This document shows positions 22,521-29,035 of a stretch of DNA of 64,000 bases, piece after piece. Location of the stretch: positions 7,359 through 71,358 of the forward strand of contig JAITQD010000116.1 in NCBI GenBank assembly GCA_031289095.1. The letters run 5' to 3'. A program made the position numbers and the translations under genes. Source of the stretch: Azoarcus sp. Its GTDB lineage: Bacteria; Pseudomonadota; Gammaproteobacteria; Burkholderiales; Rhodocyclaceae. A model generated the notes under the pieces. It had not been told where the DNA came from, made no database searches, and was given only the letters and a program-made list of their open reading frames with translations. The number at the start of each line of letters is the position of its first letter. Position 1 is the stretch's first letter.

Positions 22521-22594
22521 CCACTCGTCACCCTGCGGCGCGCCTCCGCGCCGCACAAGCGTCCGAATACCGTTTTCTCTCGTGGAGTTTTCCC

Positions 22595-24067
22595 ATGCTC
22601 GAAGAGCAATTCAACGCCCTCGCGGGCGAAGGCTACAACCGCATCCCGGTCACGCTCGAAACCTTCGCCGACCTCGACACACCGCTTTCCATCTACCTGA
22701 AGCTCGCCAATGAGCCTTACACCTATCTGCTCGAATCAGTGCAGGGCGGCGAACGCTTCGGGCGCTATTCCATCATCGGCCTCGCCTCGCCAACCCGGAT
22801 CGAAGTCCATGGCGACGCCGCCTTGCTCCTCACCGGCAACCGCCTGACCGAGCGCCGAGACGGCGGCGATCCGCTTGCCTTCATCGCTGAATTCATGGCG
22901 CGCATCAAAGTGCCGCCACGCGCCAACCTGCCGCGCTTCGCGGGCGGCCTCGTCGGCTGCTTCGGCTACGACACCGTCCGCCACATCGAACCGCGCCTCG
23001 GCCCCTGCAAACAACCCGACCCACTGAACACGCCCGACATCCTGCTGCTGCTCTCGGAAGAAATCGCCATCGTCGACAACCTCTCCGGCAAACTCACCCT
23101 CGTCGTCTACGCAGACCCCAACGTACCGGGCGCCTTTCGCCGCGCCCGCAAACGTCTCGCCGAACTGCTCACCCGTCTGCGCGAACCGGTAGTGATTCCC
23201 GCCGACGCCAGCGCCCCGGGCGCGCCGGCGGTATCGAGCTTCGGCGAAGCCGACTTCAAAAACGCCGTGCGTCGCGTCAAGCAATACATCGTCGAAGGCG
23301 ATGTCATGCAAGTCGTCCTGTCGCAACGCATGAGCAAACCCTTCGCCGCACATCCAATGGCGCTCTATCGCGCCATCCGCTCCCTCAACCCATCGCCCTA
23401 CCTCTTCAACTTCCATTTCGACGACTTCCACGTCGTCGGCGCGTCGCCCGAAATCCTCGTGCAACTTCAGGGAAATGACGTCATCGTGCGGCCCATCGCC
23501 GGCACCCGCAAGCGCGGCGCAACCCCGGCGGAAGACAAGGCACTGGAAGAAGAACTGCTCGCCGACGAAAAAGAACGCGCCGAACACCTGCAACTGCTTG
23601 ACCTGGGCCGCAACGACGCCGGGCGCGTGGCGGCAACCGGCTCGGTAAAAGTCACCGAACGCTTCATTGTCGAACGCTATTCTCACGTCATGCACCTCGT
23701 CTCCAACGTCGAAGGGCGGCTTGCCGACGGACTCAACGCCTTCGACGTCCTGCGCGCCGCCTTTCCCGCTGGCACCGTCTCGGGCGCGCCCAAGGTGCGG
23801 GCGATGGAAATCATCGACGAACTGGAACCGGTCAAGCGCGGCCTCTACGCTGGCGCGGTCGGCTACATCGGCTTTCACGGCGACATGGATCTGGCCATCG
23901 CCATCCGCACCGCCGTACTCAAGGACGGCCAGATACACGTCCAGGCGGGCGCGGGCCTCGTCGCCGACTCCGACCCCGACGCCGAATGGATGGAAACGCA
24001 GAACAAGGCCCGCGCCATGCTGCGAGCGGCGGAAATGGCCGAAAACGGCCTCGACACGCGGCTTTGA
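22595..24067 (+). CDS. trpE: Anthranilate synthase component I
   Basis: MLEEQFNALAGEGYNRIPV start preceded by GGAG, and a chorismate-binding C-terminal domain. The upstream part of ORF 22091.. is treated as non-coding. Confidence 0.95.
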   Translation: MLEEQFNALAGEGYNRIPVTLETFADLDTPLSIYLKLANEPYTYLLESVQGGERFGRYSIIGLASPTRIEVHGDAALLLTGNRLTERRDGGDPLAFIAEFMARIKVPPRANLPRFAGGLVGCFGYDTVRHIEPRLGPCKQPDPLNTPDILLLLSEEIAIVDNLSGKLTLVVYADPNVPGAFRRARKRLAELLTRLREPVVIPADASAPGAPAVSSFGEADFKNAVRRVKQYIVEGDVMQVVLSQRMSKPFAAHPMALYRAIRSLNPSPYLFNFHFDDFHVVGASPEILVQLQGNDVIVRPIAGTRKRGATPAEDKALEEELLADEKERAEHLQLLDLGRNDAGRVAATGSVKVTERFIVERYSHVMHLVSNVEGRLADGLNAFDVLRAAFPAGTVSGAPKVRAMEIIDELEPVKRGLYAGAVGYIGFHGDMDLAIAIRTAVLKDGQIHVQAGAGLVADSDPDAEWMETQNKARAMLRAAEMAENGLDTRL

Positions 24068-24080
24068 GGGAGACACCGCC

Positions 24081-24100
24081 ATGCTGCTGATGATCGACAA
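24081..24100 (+). repeat. attL core: 20-bp direct repeat ATGCTGCTGATGATCGACAA
   Basis: Identical to 26791-26810. Lies 13 nt after the trpE stop behind a GAGGGAG SD. Confidence 0.9.
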
Positions 24101-24146
24101 CAGCGATGCTAGTCCGCATTGTTCCGCGCAAGTCCACAAAAACTAG
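24081..24146 (+). pseudogene. Displaced trpG 5' stub (MLLMIDN + 14 unrelated codons, then stop)
   Basis: The first 7 codons equal the trpG start. The frame then diverges and stops after 21 codons. Confidence 0.7.
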
Positions 24147-24215
24147 CCAAGACCTGCACCGCTTCTGCGTTTTCATCCATCGCTGATATACCCGCCCATA
24201 GCCAGCCACGTAAAA

Positions 24216-24252
24216 ACCGGATAAGACCTTTCTTTTGGAACCCTTATCCGGT
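24216..24252. repeat. Inverted pair ACCGGATAAG / CTTATCCGGT just upstream of int (candidate arm-type or operator sites)
   Basis: 10-bp arms at 24216-24225 and 24243-24252 with a 17-nt spacer. The same CCGGATAAG 9-mer recurs at the right end of the island. Confidence 0.5.
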
Positions 24253-24254
24253 AA

Positions 24255-25463
24255 ATGGCTTCCCTCACAGACACCAAAGTCCGCAACGCCAAGCCGACCG
24301 ACAAGCCTTACAGGCTGACGGATGGACTCGGCCTCTATCTCGATGTGCGGCCATCGGGCGCGAAGATATGGCGCTACCGCTACTGGATCACGTCAGAGCG
24401 CGAAGGCATCTACACCATTGGCGAATACCCGGGCGTCTCGCTTTCTGAGGCGCGGCGCGAGCGCGAGTGGGCGCGCGAGCATGTGAAGCAGGGGCTGAAC
24501 CCGACACACGCGAAGGAAGCCCAGCGCATGGAGAGGATGGGCGAGCATGCCAACACCTTCGAGGCTGTCACCCGTGAGTGGATGGAGCAGAACAAGCCGC
24601 ACTGGTCCGAGGGCTACTACAACCAGGTCAAGATCAACGTCGAGCGCGACCTGTTCCCGAAGATCGGATCGCTGCCGGTCCGCATGGTGAAGGCGGCGCA
24701 CTTGCTGGGGATCATTCGCGAGGTCGAGAAACGCGGGGCGCAATCCATCGCCGTGCTGATTCGACAGTGGTCTGGACAGATTTTCAGGTATGCCGTGGCC
24801 ACGCTACGCGCCGACAGCGACCCGGCAGCGGCCCTCTATGGCTCGATCAAGCGGGCACCGGTACGTCACAACCCACCGCTGGAAAAAGACGAGATACCGC
24901 GCTTCCTGGTGCTGCTGGGGAGCTATGGCGGATACCGCGGGACGGTGATTGCGCTCACGCTCATGCTGCGCACGTTCGTACGGACGGTAGAGCTGCGCAA
25001 GGCGGAATGGACGGAGTTCGACCTTGAGGCGGCAGAGTGGCGCGTGCCGGCCGGTCGAATGAAGATGAAAAAACAGATGAAGGTGGGGGAGTCGCACATC
25101 GTGCCGCTGTCGCGCCAGGCGGTCGTACTGCTGACCGAGCTGAAGACGATCTCGGGTGGCCGGCGCTTCCTGTTCCCGAACCTGCGGACGCCGGACACGT
25201 GCATGACGGCGACGACAATCAATCGTGCCTTGGAGCGCATGGGCTACCTGGGCAAGTTCTCGGGGCACGGATTCAGATCGACGGCATCGACCCTGCTGCA
25301 TGAAATGGGGTGGCGCTCTGAACTGATCGAGCGGCAGCTTGCGCACGCGGAGCGCGACAAGGTGAAGGCAGCCTACAACCACGCTGAATACATGCCCGAG
25401 AGACGGGAAATGATGCAGGCGTGGTCGGACTGGATTGACGAGCTCGCCAGCTTGAAAATATAA
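24255..25463 (+). CDS. int: Tyrosine site-specific integrase (P4-like, DUF4102-type N-terminus)
   Basis: N-terminus LTDTKVRNAKPTDKPYRLTDGLGLYLDVRPSGAKIWRYRY. Catalytic region HGFRSTASTLLHE ... AHAERDKVKAAYNHAEY. Confidence 0.9.
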   Translation: MASLTDTKVRNAKPTDKPYRLTDGLGLYLDVRPSGAKIWRYRYWITSEREGIYTIGEYPGVSLSEARREREWAREHVKQGLNPTHAKEAQRMERMGEHANTFEAVTREWMEQNKPHWSEGYYNQVKINVERDLFPKIGSLPVRMVKAAHLLGIIREVEKRGAQSIAVLIRQWSGQIFRYAVATLRADSDPAAALYGSIKRAPVRHNPPLEKDEIPRFLVLLGSYGGYRGTVIALTLMLRTFVRTVELRKAEWTEFDLEAAEWRVPAGRMKMKKQMKVGESHIVPLSRQAVVLLTELKTISGGRRFLFPNLRTPDTCMTATTINRALERMGYLGKFSGHGFRSTASTLLHEMGWRSELIERQLAHAERDKVKAAYNHAEYMPERREMMQAWSDWIDELASLKI

Positions 25464-25485
25464 GCAAAATTGTTTGCAATTGCGC

Positions 25486-25514
25486 TTGACTACATAAACA
25501 ATGATGTTTATACT
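25486..25514 (+). promoter_or_regulatory. Near-consensus sigma70-type promoter for hicAB (TTGACT-17-TATACT)
   Basis: Hexamers read directly. The -10 ends 7 nt before the hicA ATG, implying a leaderless or near-leaderless mRNA. Confidence 0.55.
25494..25511. promoter_or_regulatory. Inverted repeat ATAAACA-N4-TGTTTAT overlapping promoter spacer/-10 (candidate HicB operator)
   Basis: Perfect 7-bp arms lying inside the promoter. Confidence 0.4.
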
Positions 25515-25521
25515 TTGAGCC

Positions 25522-25698
25522 ATGAACAGTAAAGAACTCAAACGGTGGCTGACTCAGCAAGGCGCGACATTCGGAACGCAAAAGGGTTCACACCTGAAAG
25601 TTTACCTGAACGGCAAGCAGTCCATCATACCGATGCACAACACAGACCTCAAAACTGGAACTGTCGAATGCATCAAAAAGCAGCTTGGTCTGAAATAA
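25522..25698 (+). CDS. hicA: HicA-family mRNA interferase toxin (58 aa; not on the ORF track)
   Basis: MNSKELKRWLTQQGATFGTQKGSHLKVYLNGKQSIIPMHNTDLKTGTVECIKKQLGLK. Has the HicA pattern (SKEL..L...G......GSH) and lies directly upstream of hicB. Confidence 0.8.
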   Translation: MNSKELKRWLTQQGATFGTQKGSHLKVYLNGKQSIIPMHNTDLKTGTVECIKKQLGLK

Positions 25699-25713
25699 CG
25701 AAAGAGGCTCACT

Positions 25714-26133
25714 ATGAAATTCCCCGTAAATCTCACCCCCGACAAAGACGACGGCGGTTTTGTTGTCACCTTTCAAGACGTTCCAGAAGCGATCACCCAG
25801 GGCGATACGGTCGAGGAAGCTCTCGCAATGGCGCAAGAGGCGCTTGAGACTGCCCTTGAGTTCTACTTTGAAGACAAGCGTGCCGTGCCGGTGCCTTCCA
25901 AGGCCAAGCGCGGGCAAAACGTCATCGAACTTCCTGCCAGCTTGTCGGCCAAGGTTCTGTTGCTCAATGAAATGGTGACACAAAACATCCGCCCTGCTGA
26001 ACTGGCGCGACGGTTGAACACCACCCCACAAGAAGTGAACCGCCTCACCAACCTGCGTCACACCACTCGCATTGACGGGATCGCCGCAGCGCTTCATGCA
26101 ATGGGGCGGCATCTTGAAATCAGCGTGGCCTGA
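25714..26133 (+). CDS. hicB: HicB-family antitoxin with C-terminal Xre-type HTH
   Basis: N-terminal HicB fold signature (FVVTFQDVPEAITQGDTVEEALAMAQEAL) and C-terminal HTH (IRPAELARRLNTTPQEVNRL). Confidence 0.85.
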   Translation: MKFPVNLTPDKDDGGFVVTFQDVPEAITQGDTVEEALAMAQEALETALEFYFEDKRAVPVPSKAKRGQNVIELPASLSAKVLLLNEMVTQNIRPAELARRLNTTPQEVNRLTNLRHTTRIDGIAAALHAMGRHLEISVA

Positions 26134-26156
26134 TACTGTCGCACAAACGCAAAAAG

Positions 26157-26195
26157 AACCCCGCACCCAATGACCGAAGTCACGGGTACGGGGTT
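26157..26195. terminator. Long hairpin between hicB and alpA; better terminator on the minus strand
   Basis: AACCCCGCACCC..TGAC-CGAA-GTCA..GGGTACGGGGTT. The minus-strand copy is followed by CTTTTTGCGTTT, the plus-strand copy only by GTTTC. Confidence 0.5.
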
Positions 26196-26355
26196 GTTTC
26201 ACTGGCAGGCTTTGACGGCGGCTTCAAGCTCTGTCTCGTAGCCTTGGCGCTGCCATCGCTCGGCGCGTAGCGCTTTCATCTGATCCCAGATTCCGGAACC
26301 AAGCGGCAGCCCATCGTCTGGCCCGTCGGCTCAACAGAATCTAAGGATGGACAGC

Positions 26356-26577
26356 ATGAACCCCAACGAACGCATCATCCGTTTGCCCCAGGTGGTCGAA
26401 ATGGTCGGCCTGAAGAAGTCGGCCATCTACAAGAAGATCAAGCTCGATGAGTTCCCGAAGCCGATCAAGCTCGGGACGCACGCCTCTGGCTGGCTAGAGT
26501 CCGACGTGCAGGGCTGGATTCTGAAACAGGCCGGTCTCGCGCCGGCCAACGATGAACAGCACCGGCAGGCAGCATGA
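26356..26577 (+). CDS. alpA: AlpA-family phage regulatory / excisionase-like DNA-binding protein
   Basis: RIIRLPQVVEMVGLKKSAIYKKIKLDEFPKPIKLG... motif. ATG 26356 has better SD spacing (AAGGA) than ATG 26347. Confidence 0.8.
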   Translation: MNPNERIIRLPQVVEMVGLKKSAIYKKIKLDEFPKPIKLGTHASGWLESDVQGWILKQAGLAPANDEQHRQAA

Positions 26578-26595
26578 TATGCAAGCAGGAAACCG

Positions 26596-26620
26596 AGGGG
26601 CCGCAAGGCCCCTTTTGCTT
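26596..26620 (+). terminator. Rho-independent terminator after alpA
   Basis: AGGGGCC-GCAA-GGCCCCT followed by TTTGCTTTTCTTT. Confidence 0.7.
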
Positions 26621-26712
26621 TTCTTTCCGAGTGTGCTAGGACGGGCGATAATGCGCCAATCGCAGAACAACGCTTTACCCCTCGCCAGCCCCCAAAAAAT
26701 GAGCAGCGTCAG

Positions 26713-26738
26713 AAAAACCGGATAAGCAGCCGGATAAG
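26713..26738 (+). repeat. Two direct CCGGATAAG copies (12-bp period) near the right island end
   Basis: Copies at 26718-26726 and 26730-26738. The 14-mer AAAAACCGGATAAG is shared with 24212-24225. Confidence 0.5.
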
Positions 26739-26790
26739 ATTTTCAGATTACAGGGGCAGGGTCTAATGGATTCAAGGAGATAGCCCTAAA

Positions 26791-26810
26791 ATGCTGCTGA
26801 TGATCGACAA
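26791..26810 (+). repeat. attR core: 20-bp direct repeat ATGCTGCTGATGATCGACAA (= start of intact trpG)
   Basis: Identical to 24081-24100. Confidence 0.9.
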
Positions 26811-27366
26811 TTACGACAGCTTCACCTACAACCTCGTGCAATATTTCGGCGAACTCGGCATGGACGTGCGCGTATTCCGCAACGACGCGATCACGCTCGA
26901 CCAGATCGCCGCCCACGCCCCCACCCACCTGGTCATCTCGCCGGGGCCGTGCTCGCCGGAAGAAGCCGGCATCTCGGTGGCGGCCATTCGCGCCTTTGCC
27001 GGCAAACTGCCCATCCTCGGCGTCTGCCTCGGCCACCAGAGCATTGGCGCGGCCTTCGGCGGCAAAATCGTACATGCCCAAAAACTCATGCACGGCAAAA
27101 CCTCCCCGGTGCTGCACCACGGCGCGGGCGTGTTTCGCGGCCTGCCCTCCCCCGTCATCTGCACCCGCTACCACTCGCTCGCCATCGAACGCGCCAGCCT
27201 GCCCGACTGCCTCGACGTCACCGCCTGGACGGAAGACGGCGAAATCATGGGCGTGCGCCACCGCGCCTTTGCGCTTGAAGGCGTGCAGTTTCACCCCGAA
27301 TCCATCATGACCGAACACGGCCACGACCTGCTGCAAAACTTCCTCGGCGCACCCGTCGCCGCCTGA
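26791..27366 (+). CDS. trpG: Anthranilate synthase component II (glutamine amidotransferase)
   Basis: [18 protein letters not shown] start and catalytic GVCLGHQ. The SD AAGGAGA is supplied by island sequence. Confidence 0.95.
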
Positions 27367-27381
27367 ATCCCGGAGAAAACC

Positions 27382-28422
27382 ATGTCGATCACCCCCCAGG
27401 AAGCCCTGCAACGCACCATTGAGCACCGCGAGATTTTCTATGACGAAATGCTGTCGCTGATGCGCCAGATCATGGCGGGCGAACTGTCTCCCGTCATGTC
27501 GGCGGCCATCCTCACCGGACTGCGGGTCAAAAAGGAAACCATCGACGAAATCAGCGCCGCCGCCACAGTGCTGCGCGAAATGGCGACCAAAGTAAAAGTG
27601 CCGCCGCCCAACGACAACTTTATCGACATCGTGGGCACTGGCGGTGACGGCTCGCACACCTTCAACATCTCCACCACCAGTGCCTTCGTCGTCGCCGCTG
27701 CGGGCGCGCGGGTCGCCAAGCACGGCAACCGCAGCGTATCGTCGAAATCCGGCGCGGCGGACGCCATCGAAACACTGGGCGCAAGCCTCAAGCTCGATGC
27801 CGAACAGGTGGCGGCCTGCATCGCCGACACCGGCATCGGCTTCATGTTCGCGCCCAACTTTCATACCGCGATGAAAAACATCGCCCCGGTGCGGCGCGAG
27901 ATGGGCGTGCGCACCCTGTTCAACATCCTCGGGCCGCTCATCAACCCGGCGGACGCGCCCAACATGCTCCTTGGCGTCTTCCATCCCGACCTCGTCGGCA
28001 TTCTGGTGCGGGTCATGGAGCGGCTGGGCGGCAAACACGTACTGGTGGTGCACGGCCTGGACGGCGTAGACGAAGTCAGCTTGGGCGCAACGACCCTGGT
28101 CGGCGAACTCAAGGACGGCAAAGTAACCGAATACGAAATCCATCCCGAGGATTTCGGCATTGCCATGGCGGGCACGCGCAACCTGCGGGTGGAAACGCCG
28201 GAACAGTCAATCCAGGTGCTGCGCGGCGTGCTCGACAACCGCCCTGGCCCGGCGCGCGATGTCGTCATTTTCAACGCCGGCGTAGCGCTCCATGCAGCCA
28301 ACGTGGCGACCTCCATTGGCGATGGCATCTCGCGGGCAAAGAAAGTGCTCGAAAATGGCGCGGCAAAAGCCAAGCTGGAAGAATTTGTACGGTATAACCA
28401 GCAATTCAAATCCGCACCGTAA
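27382..28422 (+). CDS. trpD: Anthranilate phosphoribosyltransferase
   Basis: [14 protein letters not shown] and [12 protein letters not shown] motifs. Confidence 0.95.
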
Positions 28423-28439
28423 GCGGTTACGCGACGCCC

Positions 28440-28605
28440 CAGGGTGCATACAATGCGCCCTGGCCTGCCTATAAGCGTTCGCGTAATTCGGATCGAGCTT
28501 GATCGCTTGGGAGCAATCGGCAATTGCTTTTGAATAATCGCCTAAATCATTGTAAGCCGATCCGCGATTATTATAAGCCAGCGCGAAATTTTGGATTGAG
28601 CTCAT
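28440..28605 (-). pseudogene. TPR-repeat gene fragment (about 1.5 repeats, truncated)
   Basis: ALAYNNRGSAYNDLGDYSKAIADCSQAIKLDPNYANAY is a canonical TPR unit. G+C is low. The rest of ORF 28207..28605 is antisense to trpD and so not credible. Confidence 0.4.
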
Positions 28606-28907
28606 TGGTCGACTACCTCAACGGGATCGACGAGGCGGATAAAGAACTGTCCCGTTACACACACAAGGCCATCAGTACGATCACCTGGATGGAGATTCTC
28701 GTCGGCGCAACGCCAGAGGAAGATGCGGCGCTGAGAACGTGGTTACGCACGTTCGAGGTGATGGAGGGGGGAAAATCGTCCGCGCCAACGCTGATGCGCT
28801 TCTGCCGCGCCACAAAGGCTGCGCAAGCGTGTGATGACGCGGCGCAGCTGTGCGTGGTTTTCGTTGGACGTCACTGGATCAGATATTCTATAAAATCTGA
28901 ACTGTAA
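28590..28907 (+). pseudogene. Degraded PIN/VapC-like gene fragment (N-terminus lost, probable frameshift)
   Basis: SSLVDYLNG....ISTITWMEILVGA resembles VapC blocks. The downstream VapC-like residues appear only in another frame. Confidence 0.35.
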
Positions 28908-28960
28908 CAACCACTTGCAACGCTCAGTAGACTTTAGCGGAAGTCCGCAGAATGATGCAG

Positions 28961-29035
28961 TGGAGCGGGCGAAGGGAGTCGAACCCTCGTCATCAGCTTG
29001 GGAAGCTGAGGTAATAGCCGTTATACGACGCCCGC
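28961..29035 (-). tRNA. tRNA-Gly (anticodon CCC), CCA encoded
   Basis: Reverse complement is GCGGGCG..TCAGC-TTCCCAA-GCTGA..GAGGGTTCGACTCCCTTCGCCCGCTCCA. Has a 7-bp acceptor stem and resembles E. coli glyU (as I recall its sequence). Confidence 0.9.

Follow-up and report, generated by a model that had tools for sequence, protein, structure and literature searches.

Organization of the trpE-trpG junction

The window analysed here is a 64-kb stretch (64,000 nucleotides) of the Azoarcus sp. contig JAITQD010000116.1, and it carries a 2.7-kb insert between the anthranilate synthase genes trpE and trpG. The insert is bounded by the sequence ATGCTGCTGATGATCGACAA, a perfect 20-bp direct repeat. The window has exactly two copies of it (24081-24100 and 26791-26810), against a chance expectation of none even when 2 mismatches are allowed. 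Both copies are the first 20 nt of trpG, and their likeness extends beyond the 20-mer, with 24 of 27 positions identical. The left copy begins 13 nt 3' of the trpE stop codon (TGA 24065-24067), is preceded by the Shine-Dalgarno (SD) sequence GAGGGAG and opens a 21-codon open reading frame (ORF), MLLMIDNSDASPHCSAQVHKN followed by a stop, hereafter called the stub. The right copy is preceded by AAGGAGA and opens the full 191-aa TrpG (Pfam GATase, 2e-61). An earlier sequence-only reading of this DNA had described the repeat as a twofold trpG start, the left copy as leading into a stub behind a native SD, and the right copy as running into full-length TrpG; exact counting, ORF inspection and domain searches bore out all three statements.

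The same reading had recognized four genes between the repeats, coding for an integrase, HicA, HicB and an AlpA-type protein, and Pfam matches confirmed each of them (Table 1). All three integrase domains exceed their gathering thresholds, and the protein also matches phrog_1 ('integrase', 9e-65) and is 43% identical to P4 Int. Its residues R243, H338/R341 (His-x-x-Arg), H364 and Y374 are invariant in an alignment with six homologues, the length of the C-terminal tail differs among family members, and the enzyme is apparently intact. The adjacent hicA and hicB genes have a predicted promoter of their own (TTGACT-17-TATACT, 25486-25514; 10 of 12 consensus positions in the promoter scan), which marks them as a putative HicAB type II toxin-antitoxin system, and PHROG places the HicA and HicB families in its 'moron' category. 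For alpA, an alternative start codon lies at 26356 (ATG). The four genes had further been described as lower in G+C than the flanks. The overall value of the insert is 0.575 against 0.64-0.65 for trpE and trpG, and the description holds for the arms (0.51), hicAB (0.51) and alpA (0.59) but not for the integrase gene, which at 0.62 is about at flank level.

Because two contigs of a second sequencing run, SRR14710897, reproduce this structure at 100% identity, it is not regarded as an assembly artefact. These contigs match window positions 22857-26180 and 26153-28714 with a 28-nt overlap and together span trpE, the left junction (attL), int and hicAB on one side and the spanin fragment, alpA, the right junction (attR), trpG and trpD on the other. 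A metagenomic mis-join that collapsed a full prophage, or a chimera that duplicated the 20-mer, might be imagined, since the window probably comes from a metagenome assembly and the contigs of the second run break at the hairpin at 26157-26196. Such an origin is nevertheless very improbable, as the SRR14710897 contigs contain the two att junctions and the int/hicA junction as well as the one between the spanin fragment and alpA. The artefactual repeat that the sequence-only reading had kept in view was thereby set aside.

Table 1. Features of the trpE-trpD region in window coordinates
Feature	Coordinates	Strand	Evidence or remarks
trpE, anthranilate synthase component I, left flank	22589-24067	+	Pfam Chorismate_bind 2e-94 and Anth_synt_I_N
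Native host SD GAGGGAG	24066-24072	+	Read from sequence; on the host side of attL
attL core, left repeat copy	24081-24100	+	Exact repeat; same core 5' of int in 27/29 clade tips
Stub ORF MLLMIDNSDASPHCSAQVHKN	24081-24146	+	Codons 1-7 from trpG, remainder phage-derived attP sequence
Left (P') arm	24101-24254	+	Putative arm-type sites CCGGATAAG at 24217-24225 (+) and 24243-24251 (-)
P4-type tyrosine integrase, 402 aa	24255-25463	+	Pfam Arm-DNA-bind_3, Phage_int_M, Phage_integrase
hicAB cassette	25455-26140	+	Promoter, hicA, hicB; recurring homology block
hicA	25522-25698	+	Pfam HicA_toxin, full-length match
hicB	25714-26133	+	Pfam HicB_lk_antitox
Intrinsic terminator	26157-26196	-	Strong; folding -32.7 kcal/mol, z = -5.1; U-rich tail
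Truncated o-spanin-like lipoprotein gene	26196-26330	-	Last ~45 codons and stop
alpA-type excisionase/regulator gene	26347-26577	+	Pfam Phage_AlpA 8e-18; PHROG 'excisionase and transcriptional regulator'
Right (P) arm	26578-26790	+	Direct sites CCGGATAAG at 26718-26726 and 26730-26738; SD AAGGAGA 26774-26780
Intrinsic terminator after alpA	26595-26624	+	8-bp GC-rich stem, then TTGCTTTTCT (terminator scan); conserved in L004
Candidate outward promoter, right arm	26624-26652	+	-35 TTTCCG 26624-26629, -10 GATAAT 26647-26652
attR core, right repeat copy, start of functional trpG	26791-26810	+	Exact repeat
trpG, anthranilate synthase component II, intact	26791-27366	+	Pfam GATase 2e-61
trpD	27382-28422	+	Directly after trpG

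A phage attachment site that mimics the start of trpG

The closest relative of the window integrase, 96% identical, is encoded on a 44.7-kb phage contig (L004) that also carries genes for YqaJ, RecT, SSB, a DNA methylase, baseplate and tail proteins. In this contig a 400-bp spacer separates alpA from the following int. The spacer runs colinear with the window from the right arm through the core to the left arm, and the SD, the ATG and the 21-codon stub all lie in the shared stretch. Read in order, the spacer begins with the alpA terminator and a GATAAT box and continues with two direct CCGGATAAG sites, TCAAGGAGATAGCCCTAAA and then ATGCTGCTGATGATAGATAA, after which the same 21-codon stub is followed by three more CCGGATAA-type sites just before the int ATG. 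Judged by this sequence, the spacer is a phage attachment site (attP) mimicking the trpG start. The window right arm is nearly identical to the L004 stretch upstream of the core, a nearly identical stub stands in the free-phage attP, with stubs of similar length in all relatives, and the AlpA encoded ahead of attP in L004 is 75% identical to that of the window. Nucleotide homology between the window and the phage is confined to two blocks, one over the left arm and int (24081-25449, 91%) and the other over alpA and the right arm (26362-26810, 85%). The 0.9 kb between the blocks is taken up by the hicAB cassette and by the minus-strand terminator with the spanin fragment.

An integrated form was found in Azospira oryzae PS (CP003153.1), in which trpE is followed by a stub beginning ATGCTGCTGATGATCGATAACAGCGAC, an 80%-identical int and then lysis and tail genes. 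The Azospira TrpE, which likewise adjoins attL, is 74% identical to that of the window. The host-side flanks of attL vary from host to host, and in the window GAGGGAG is the SD that served trpG before integration and now serves the stub ORF.

These comparisons suggest how the junctions arose. The phage attP would act as a trpG-start mimic with a promoter-like element, an SD, an ATG and 7 codons, flanked by arm-type sites on both sides. Recombination between attP and the trpG start of the host would let the host SD and 7 codons run into phage sequence as the 21-codon stub, followed by int, to give attL, while attR would place the phage right arm with its own SD before the unchanged trpG reading frame. 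The mimic, the arm-type sites and their layout are evident in the phage and window sequences, and so is the splitting of attP into attL and attR with the TrpG frame unchanged. The crossover falls within the first ~20 nt of trpG, and a finer placement from mismatches among attP, attL and attR is impossible because the two copies of the core in the window are identical. The proposal of the sequence-only reading that the right arm supplies a new SD and start is thus supported by an attP that unites the right arm with its SD, the ATG core with the stub, and the left arm.

Transposition can likewise leave direct repeats at insertion borders, and the 20-bp repeat could in principle be a target-site or local duplication produced by a transposon or by illegitimate recombination, unrelated to the integrase. 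The probability of this is negligible. The repeat and both arms pre-exist as a single attP in free phage contigs, by which the idea is effectively refuted; the same core recurs with homologous integrases across many genera, and no transposase is found among the ORFs of the element.

The 9-mer CCGGATAAG has four copies in the window, all within the two arms, against 0.18 expected. By the P4/lambda paradigm, the integrase would bind these putative arm-type sites. A third P'-arm site, present in all six related attP/attL sequences aligned, has been lost from the window by a 12-bp deletion, a loss seen in the window only among the aligned relatives. A GCGATAAT block in the right arm is conserved in the attP or attR arms of L004 and three further loci (L139, L143 and L164), where TTGCCN precedes it by 17-18 nt. 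Because alpA ends in a terminator and this element is conserved in right arms, the phage probably also supplies the promoter for trpG-trpD, and this one promoter may serve int as long as the phage is free and trpG in a lysogen. The terminator scan predicted no terminator between trpE and the co-directional int downstream of it; therefore, int of the lysogen may be transcribed by read-through from the trp operon.

An 18-nt inverted repeat (17 of 18 positions complementary) was also observed between the 3' end of trpE (23986-24003, ATGGATGGAAACGCAGAA) and the left arm (24163-24180, TTCTGCGTTTTCATCCAT). In the window the repeat is significant against shuffled sequence (0 of 500), and its left-arm half is conserved in phage L004 and the Azospira prophage. 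No function is ascribed to this repeat, since neither Azospira nor L006 keeps the pairing.

A clade of integrases at trpG starts

Integrase relatives were collected by genome, IMG/VR and assembly look-ups, and 54 integrases were placed in a quick neighbour-joining tree. The clade of the window integrase spans 46-100% identity. Of the 29 clade tips with enough upstream flank, 27 show a trpG/pabA-start core 5' of int, a count that takes in the window and the duplicate contig L196. The distance from core to int in these 27 is 175-230 bp except in two tips, in which it is 924 bp. The remaining two of the 29 are L011 and the Yersinia phage YeP5. Members of the sister clade adjoin tRNA-Met, tRNA-Thr and tRNA-Ala genes. 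Hosts named in the records with the core 5' of int include Azospira, a Burkholderia metagenome-assembled genome (MAG), Iodobacter, Luteimonas, Pigmentiphaga, Pectobacterium and further Beta- and Gammaproteobacteria, and from their sequences Pseudomonas hosts appear to belong to this list as well. Hence, the recurrence of integrase homologues at trpG that the sequence-only reading had proposed to look for was found in many genera. Together with the attP-bearing phage contigs, it supports the view that the element integrates site-specifically with a bacterial attachment site (attB) of ~20 nt at the trpG start, and this target is general for the integrase clade.

The attP layout is conserved as well. 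Its first half consists of two direct arm sites, a TTTTCAG motif, the block AATCA-A-R-R-GGTT and the ATG core with the stub, and its second half of two direct and one inverted arm site followed by int. The arm motif changes while this layout is kept, being CCGGATAA in the group of the window and GCGGGTAT in the Pseudomonas-like/Pectobacterium group. In the Pectobacterium locus (L036; RMBP01000002.1, 5820-6003), a 60%-identical integrase stands behind the stub ATGCTGCTAATTATCGATAAC (MLLIIDN…) and GCGGGTAT sites and adjoins a pectate-lyase gene cluster. The gene interrupted there is probably pabA or trpG-like, with its intact copy beyond the fetched locus.

Among deposited phages, the closest integrase is that of Yersinia phage YeP4-6 (55% identity), which keeps the CCGGATAA arm motif and lacks a trpG core. 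In YeP5 (L034; MK733263.1, 1200-1500), the arm-type motif ACCGGATAA is seen in both arms and there is no trpG-like core. YeP5 is an example of a change in core specificity with the arm motif retained. At the DNA level, deposited phages match the element only in hicB and the spanin fragment.

The sequence-only reading knew of no trpG-start case, and the literature search likewise turned up no description of an integrase or att site at this position, although such cases may sit uncommented in large island databases. The trpG start is a docking site used by many phages and, as far as the literature could be followed, has not been described as such.

Probable prophage decay and the possible role of hicAB

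The 2.7-kb insert is very probably the remnant of a tailed temperate phage that integrated site-specifically at the first ~20 nt of trpG. It is not an intact prophage, as only int, alpA and a spanin fragment are left and no head, tail, replication or lysogeny-control genes are present. The spanin fragment shares 79% nucleotide identity with an 89-aa lipoprotein gene beside int in the Azospira prophage, of which it matches the C-terminal half. It also matches the 'outer membrane spanin component' of Xanthomonas phage Rb1 and covers only positions 49-86 of the 87-position phrog_3580 profile. The 5' break of this fragment marks an internal deletion junction, and the minus-strand terminator beside it is the 3' end of a former phage lysis operon. 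After integration, a single internal deletion with one end inside the o-spanin-like gene and the other ~20 bp upstream of alpA would have removed the DNA between them; the deletion-type structure is evident, and one event would be enough to produce it. What such a deletion would leave is attL, int, the hicAB moron, the terminator with the spanin fragment, alpA and attR.

The hicAB block (25455-26140) recurs in dozens of unrelated contigs. A scan for HicB relatives returned 82 loci, 10 of them in viral and 72 in metagenome contigs, with up to 90% identity, and none of these has a window-type int, alpA, spanin fragment or trpG. By these comparisons, hicAB looks like a portable module at a typical moron position, and it plausibly penalises loss of the element.

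A different account would take the 2.7 kb as a functional minimal integrative element, satellite-like, in which int, alpA and hicAB form a selected design that excises and reintegrates, hitch-hikes on related helper phages or transduction, and is kept by toxin-antitoxin addiction. In favour of this account, the integrase appears intact, AlpA and the two att cores are in place along with four arm-type sites, hicAB has a strong predicted promoter, and the att repeats are still perfect. On the other hand, the combination of HicB with a window-type int, alpA or trpG is absent from all 82 loci, the sole other copy found belongs to the same strain, and a conserved arm site is missing. The gene fragment and the orphan terminator are debris, not parts of a design, and no replication, packaging or origin-of-transfer/relaxase functions fit into 2.7 kb. 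This account is therefore held to be improbable. Between the two explanations of small size that the sequence-only reading had offered, a heavily decayed island is favoured over a minimal addiction cassette in view of the truncated spanin gene, the portable hicAB and the lost arm site.

The remnant of the phage may still excise, considering its apparently intact integrase, putative excisionase and both att sites. It lacks one of the three P'-arm sites. Genes for replication, packaging and transfer are absent, and the remnant would be unable to replicate or transfer.

Decay at the trpG site is not unique to the window, because a second remnant was found in a Burkholderiales MAG (L008; CAZBWH010000029.1, 7216-14235). 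This remnant measures 7 kb, has an integrase of 62% identity, and carries as cargo hicBA in reverse orientation together with what is left of tail-sheath and tail-Z genes. On the host side, its attL already has the look of a phage right arm (ggctctacaaatcaaggggattgcc…), which suggests an earlier integration scar or tandem occupancy. No trpE lies upstream in this genome.

Host relatives and points against the prophage origin

The exact TrpG protein of the window was found in the same strain only, and Azoarcus-like MAGs contain a TrpG of 88% identity. The nearest TrpG relatives (84-88%, Azoarcus/Pseudothauera-like) have a single unoccupied core at the trpG start. An Azoarcus-like metagenome contig (L048) has a divergent binding-protein gene upstream of trpG, and in Pseudothauera lacus (L049) trpE and trpG are separated by three genes, namely an aminotransferase gene, a BKACE-family gene and one of unknown nature, so the trpE-trpG interval is variable in the family of the host too. 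Because trpE is not adjacent to trpG in these relatives, a true empty site for the host was not found. The empty-site comparison suggested by the sequence-only reading was consequently answered in part, with unoccupied trpG starts in relatives and no recovered site in which trpE, 13 nt and trpG follow one another. As a separate observation, the L048 sequence upstream of trpG (caaaacaaaaggatagacg) resembles phage right arms.

Several points weigh against the origin from a site-specifically integrated phage or against parts of it. Neither an isogenic empty site (trpE stop, 13 nt, ATGCTGCTGATGATCGACAATTACGAC) nor a circular form of the window element was seen, the closest relatives reaching no more than 84-88% identity in TrpG. 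The integrase tree is a quick one that carries no support values. In the window, the -35 TTTCCG is weaker than the TTGCCN of the relatives, and the right-arm promoter, being below threshold, was not called in the consensus promoter scan of the window. The hicAB cassette could have entered after the deletion instead of as a phage moron. Finally, excision, the right-arm promoter and HicAB activity are predictions from sequence.

Further downstream, an Rfam scan of 21-30 kb gave no match inside the element and only one match elsewhere, a tRNA-Gly(CCC) gene on the minus strand just downstream of trpD (28961-29035). In this region (28423-29035), the stretch between trpD and the tRNA gene is low in G+C (0.50-0.56) and holds nothing but fragments, a single-TPR piece and an ORF with no Pfam match. 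A DUF2726 gene lies beyond the tRNA gene. The stretch may be the scar of another tRNA-linked island. The window lacks trpC, which follows trpD in L048 and L049.

The trpE-trpG interval as an insertion hotspot

The trpE-trpG interval is known as the insertion hotspot of pyocins and other tailocins in Pseudomonas (PMC7344871, PMC13624779, bioRxiv 10.1101/2023.04.17.536465), and none of these three sources names an integrase or att site for it. The window resembles the R/F-type pyocin and other tailocin loci in having phage-derived DNA in the trpE-trpG slot. It differs from them in keeping an integrase and no tail genes, whereas tailocin loci keep tail and lysis genes and have no integrase. P. 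aeruginosa-like F-pyocin loci share with the right arms of active phages the block AATCA-A-R-R-GGTT immediately 5' of the trpG ATG, and the arm sites in the F-pyocin loci are degenerate only. From its sequence, the block upstream of trpG in pyocin loci fits a fossil attR without proving one, and the tailocins and the integrase clade at trpG starts may be of common origin. A TrpE-profile scan of viral contigs yielded three loci that neither support nor refute this link; L197 has no stub directly after trpE, and in L198 trpE is followed by a host gene and then by the stub and int.

Some further loci bear on the variability of this interval. In four IMG/VR prophage calls from Pseudomonas-like pyocin/tailocin regions that end at trpG (L153, L155, L141 and L136), the ~150 bp upstream end with AATCA-A-R-R-GGTT, as active phage right arms do, and contain degenerate repeats resembling arm sites. 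In L142, L150, L183 and L188, a new int-bearing prophage is inserted at the core directly after an older arm. Between ltaE and trpG, Xanthomonas arboricola carries the hrp/hrc type III secretion island or, in a non-pathogenic strain, an 8-kb restriction-modification island (PMC4686621), which makes the ltaE-trpG interval another variable region abutting trpG.

A joint reading of these data is offered tentatively, as a possibility rather than as the expected outcome. In it, a large clade of P4-type integrases from Beta- and Gammaproteobacteria would use as attB the first 20-27 nt of trpG, or of a similar, possibly pabA, gene start, which encode the conserved N-terminus MLLMIDNYD, and its attP would keep trp expressed by mimicking promoter, SD and start codon. 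The clade would explain why Pseudomonas R/F pyocins and other tailocins were domesticated at the trpE-trpG hotspot and might explain the separation of trpE from trpGDC in several lineages, and the regions upstream of trpG in those genomes would be fossil attR arms.

The element in the window is itself a case of ordinary prophage decay, and its value lies in the clear view that it gives of an attachment site undescribed as far as could be found. A whole clade of phage integrases uses the start of a conserved biosynthetic gene in the way that a tRNA gene is used, and the phage-borne promoter, ribosome-binding site and first codons would allow the host to stay tryptophan-prototrophic. For the long-noted trpE-trpG hotspot of Pseudomonas pyocins and tailocins, this offers a testable mechanism. 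It also provides a rule for annotation, by which an 'MLLMIDN' stub after trpE or 5' of a P4-type int marks attL, and it supplies integrase-based genome engineering in Proteobacteria with a further attB that is conserved and well defined.

Comparison with known systems

The window integrase has the same three domains and catalytic residues as the P4-type integrases that target tRNA genes, arm-type repeats occur in both attP arms, and int lies beside attL in the orientation of the target gene. The difference lies in the target, which here is the 5' end of trpG (or a similar, possibly pabA, gene start in Pectobacterium) and not the 3' end of a tRNA gene; therefore, attP mimics an SD, a start codon and 7 codons rather than a tRNA 3' half.

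The sequence-only reading had compared the element with islands of the dusA integrases (DAIs), which have ~21-bp att repeats and variable cargo including prophages (Farrugia et al. 2015, PMC4482086). The analogy holds in that insertion takes place at the 5' end of a housekeeping gene and the element brings a new 5' end with a putative promoter. It does not extend to the enzyme, because DAIs are Rci-like recombinases distinct from phage integrases (PMC4482086), and the window integrase, of P4 type with an arm-binding domain and trpG as its target, is by that description not of the dusA type. Moreover, the codons replaced in the window are identical, so that the TrpG protein is unchanged, unlike in the DAI case.

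With P4-like satellites and phage-inducible chromosomal islands, the window element shares an int and an alpA-type regulator, but the ORFs of its 2.7 kb include no primase/rep genes, and it has neither an origin of replication nor genes for hijacking helper packaging. It also resembles cryptic prophages carrying toxin-antitoxin modules, being reduced by deletion with int, an excisionase-like gene and a toxin-antitoxin pair kept. Unlike the usual cryptic prophages, the remnant is extremely small, at 2.7 kb, and its att sites are nonetheless perfect.

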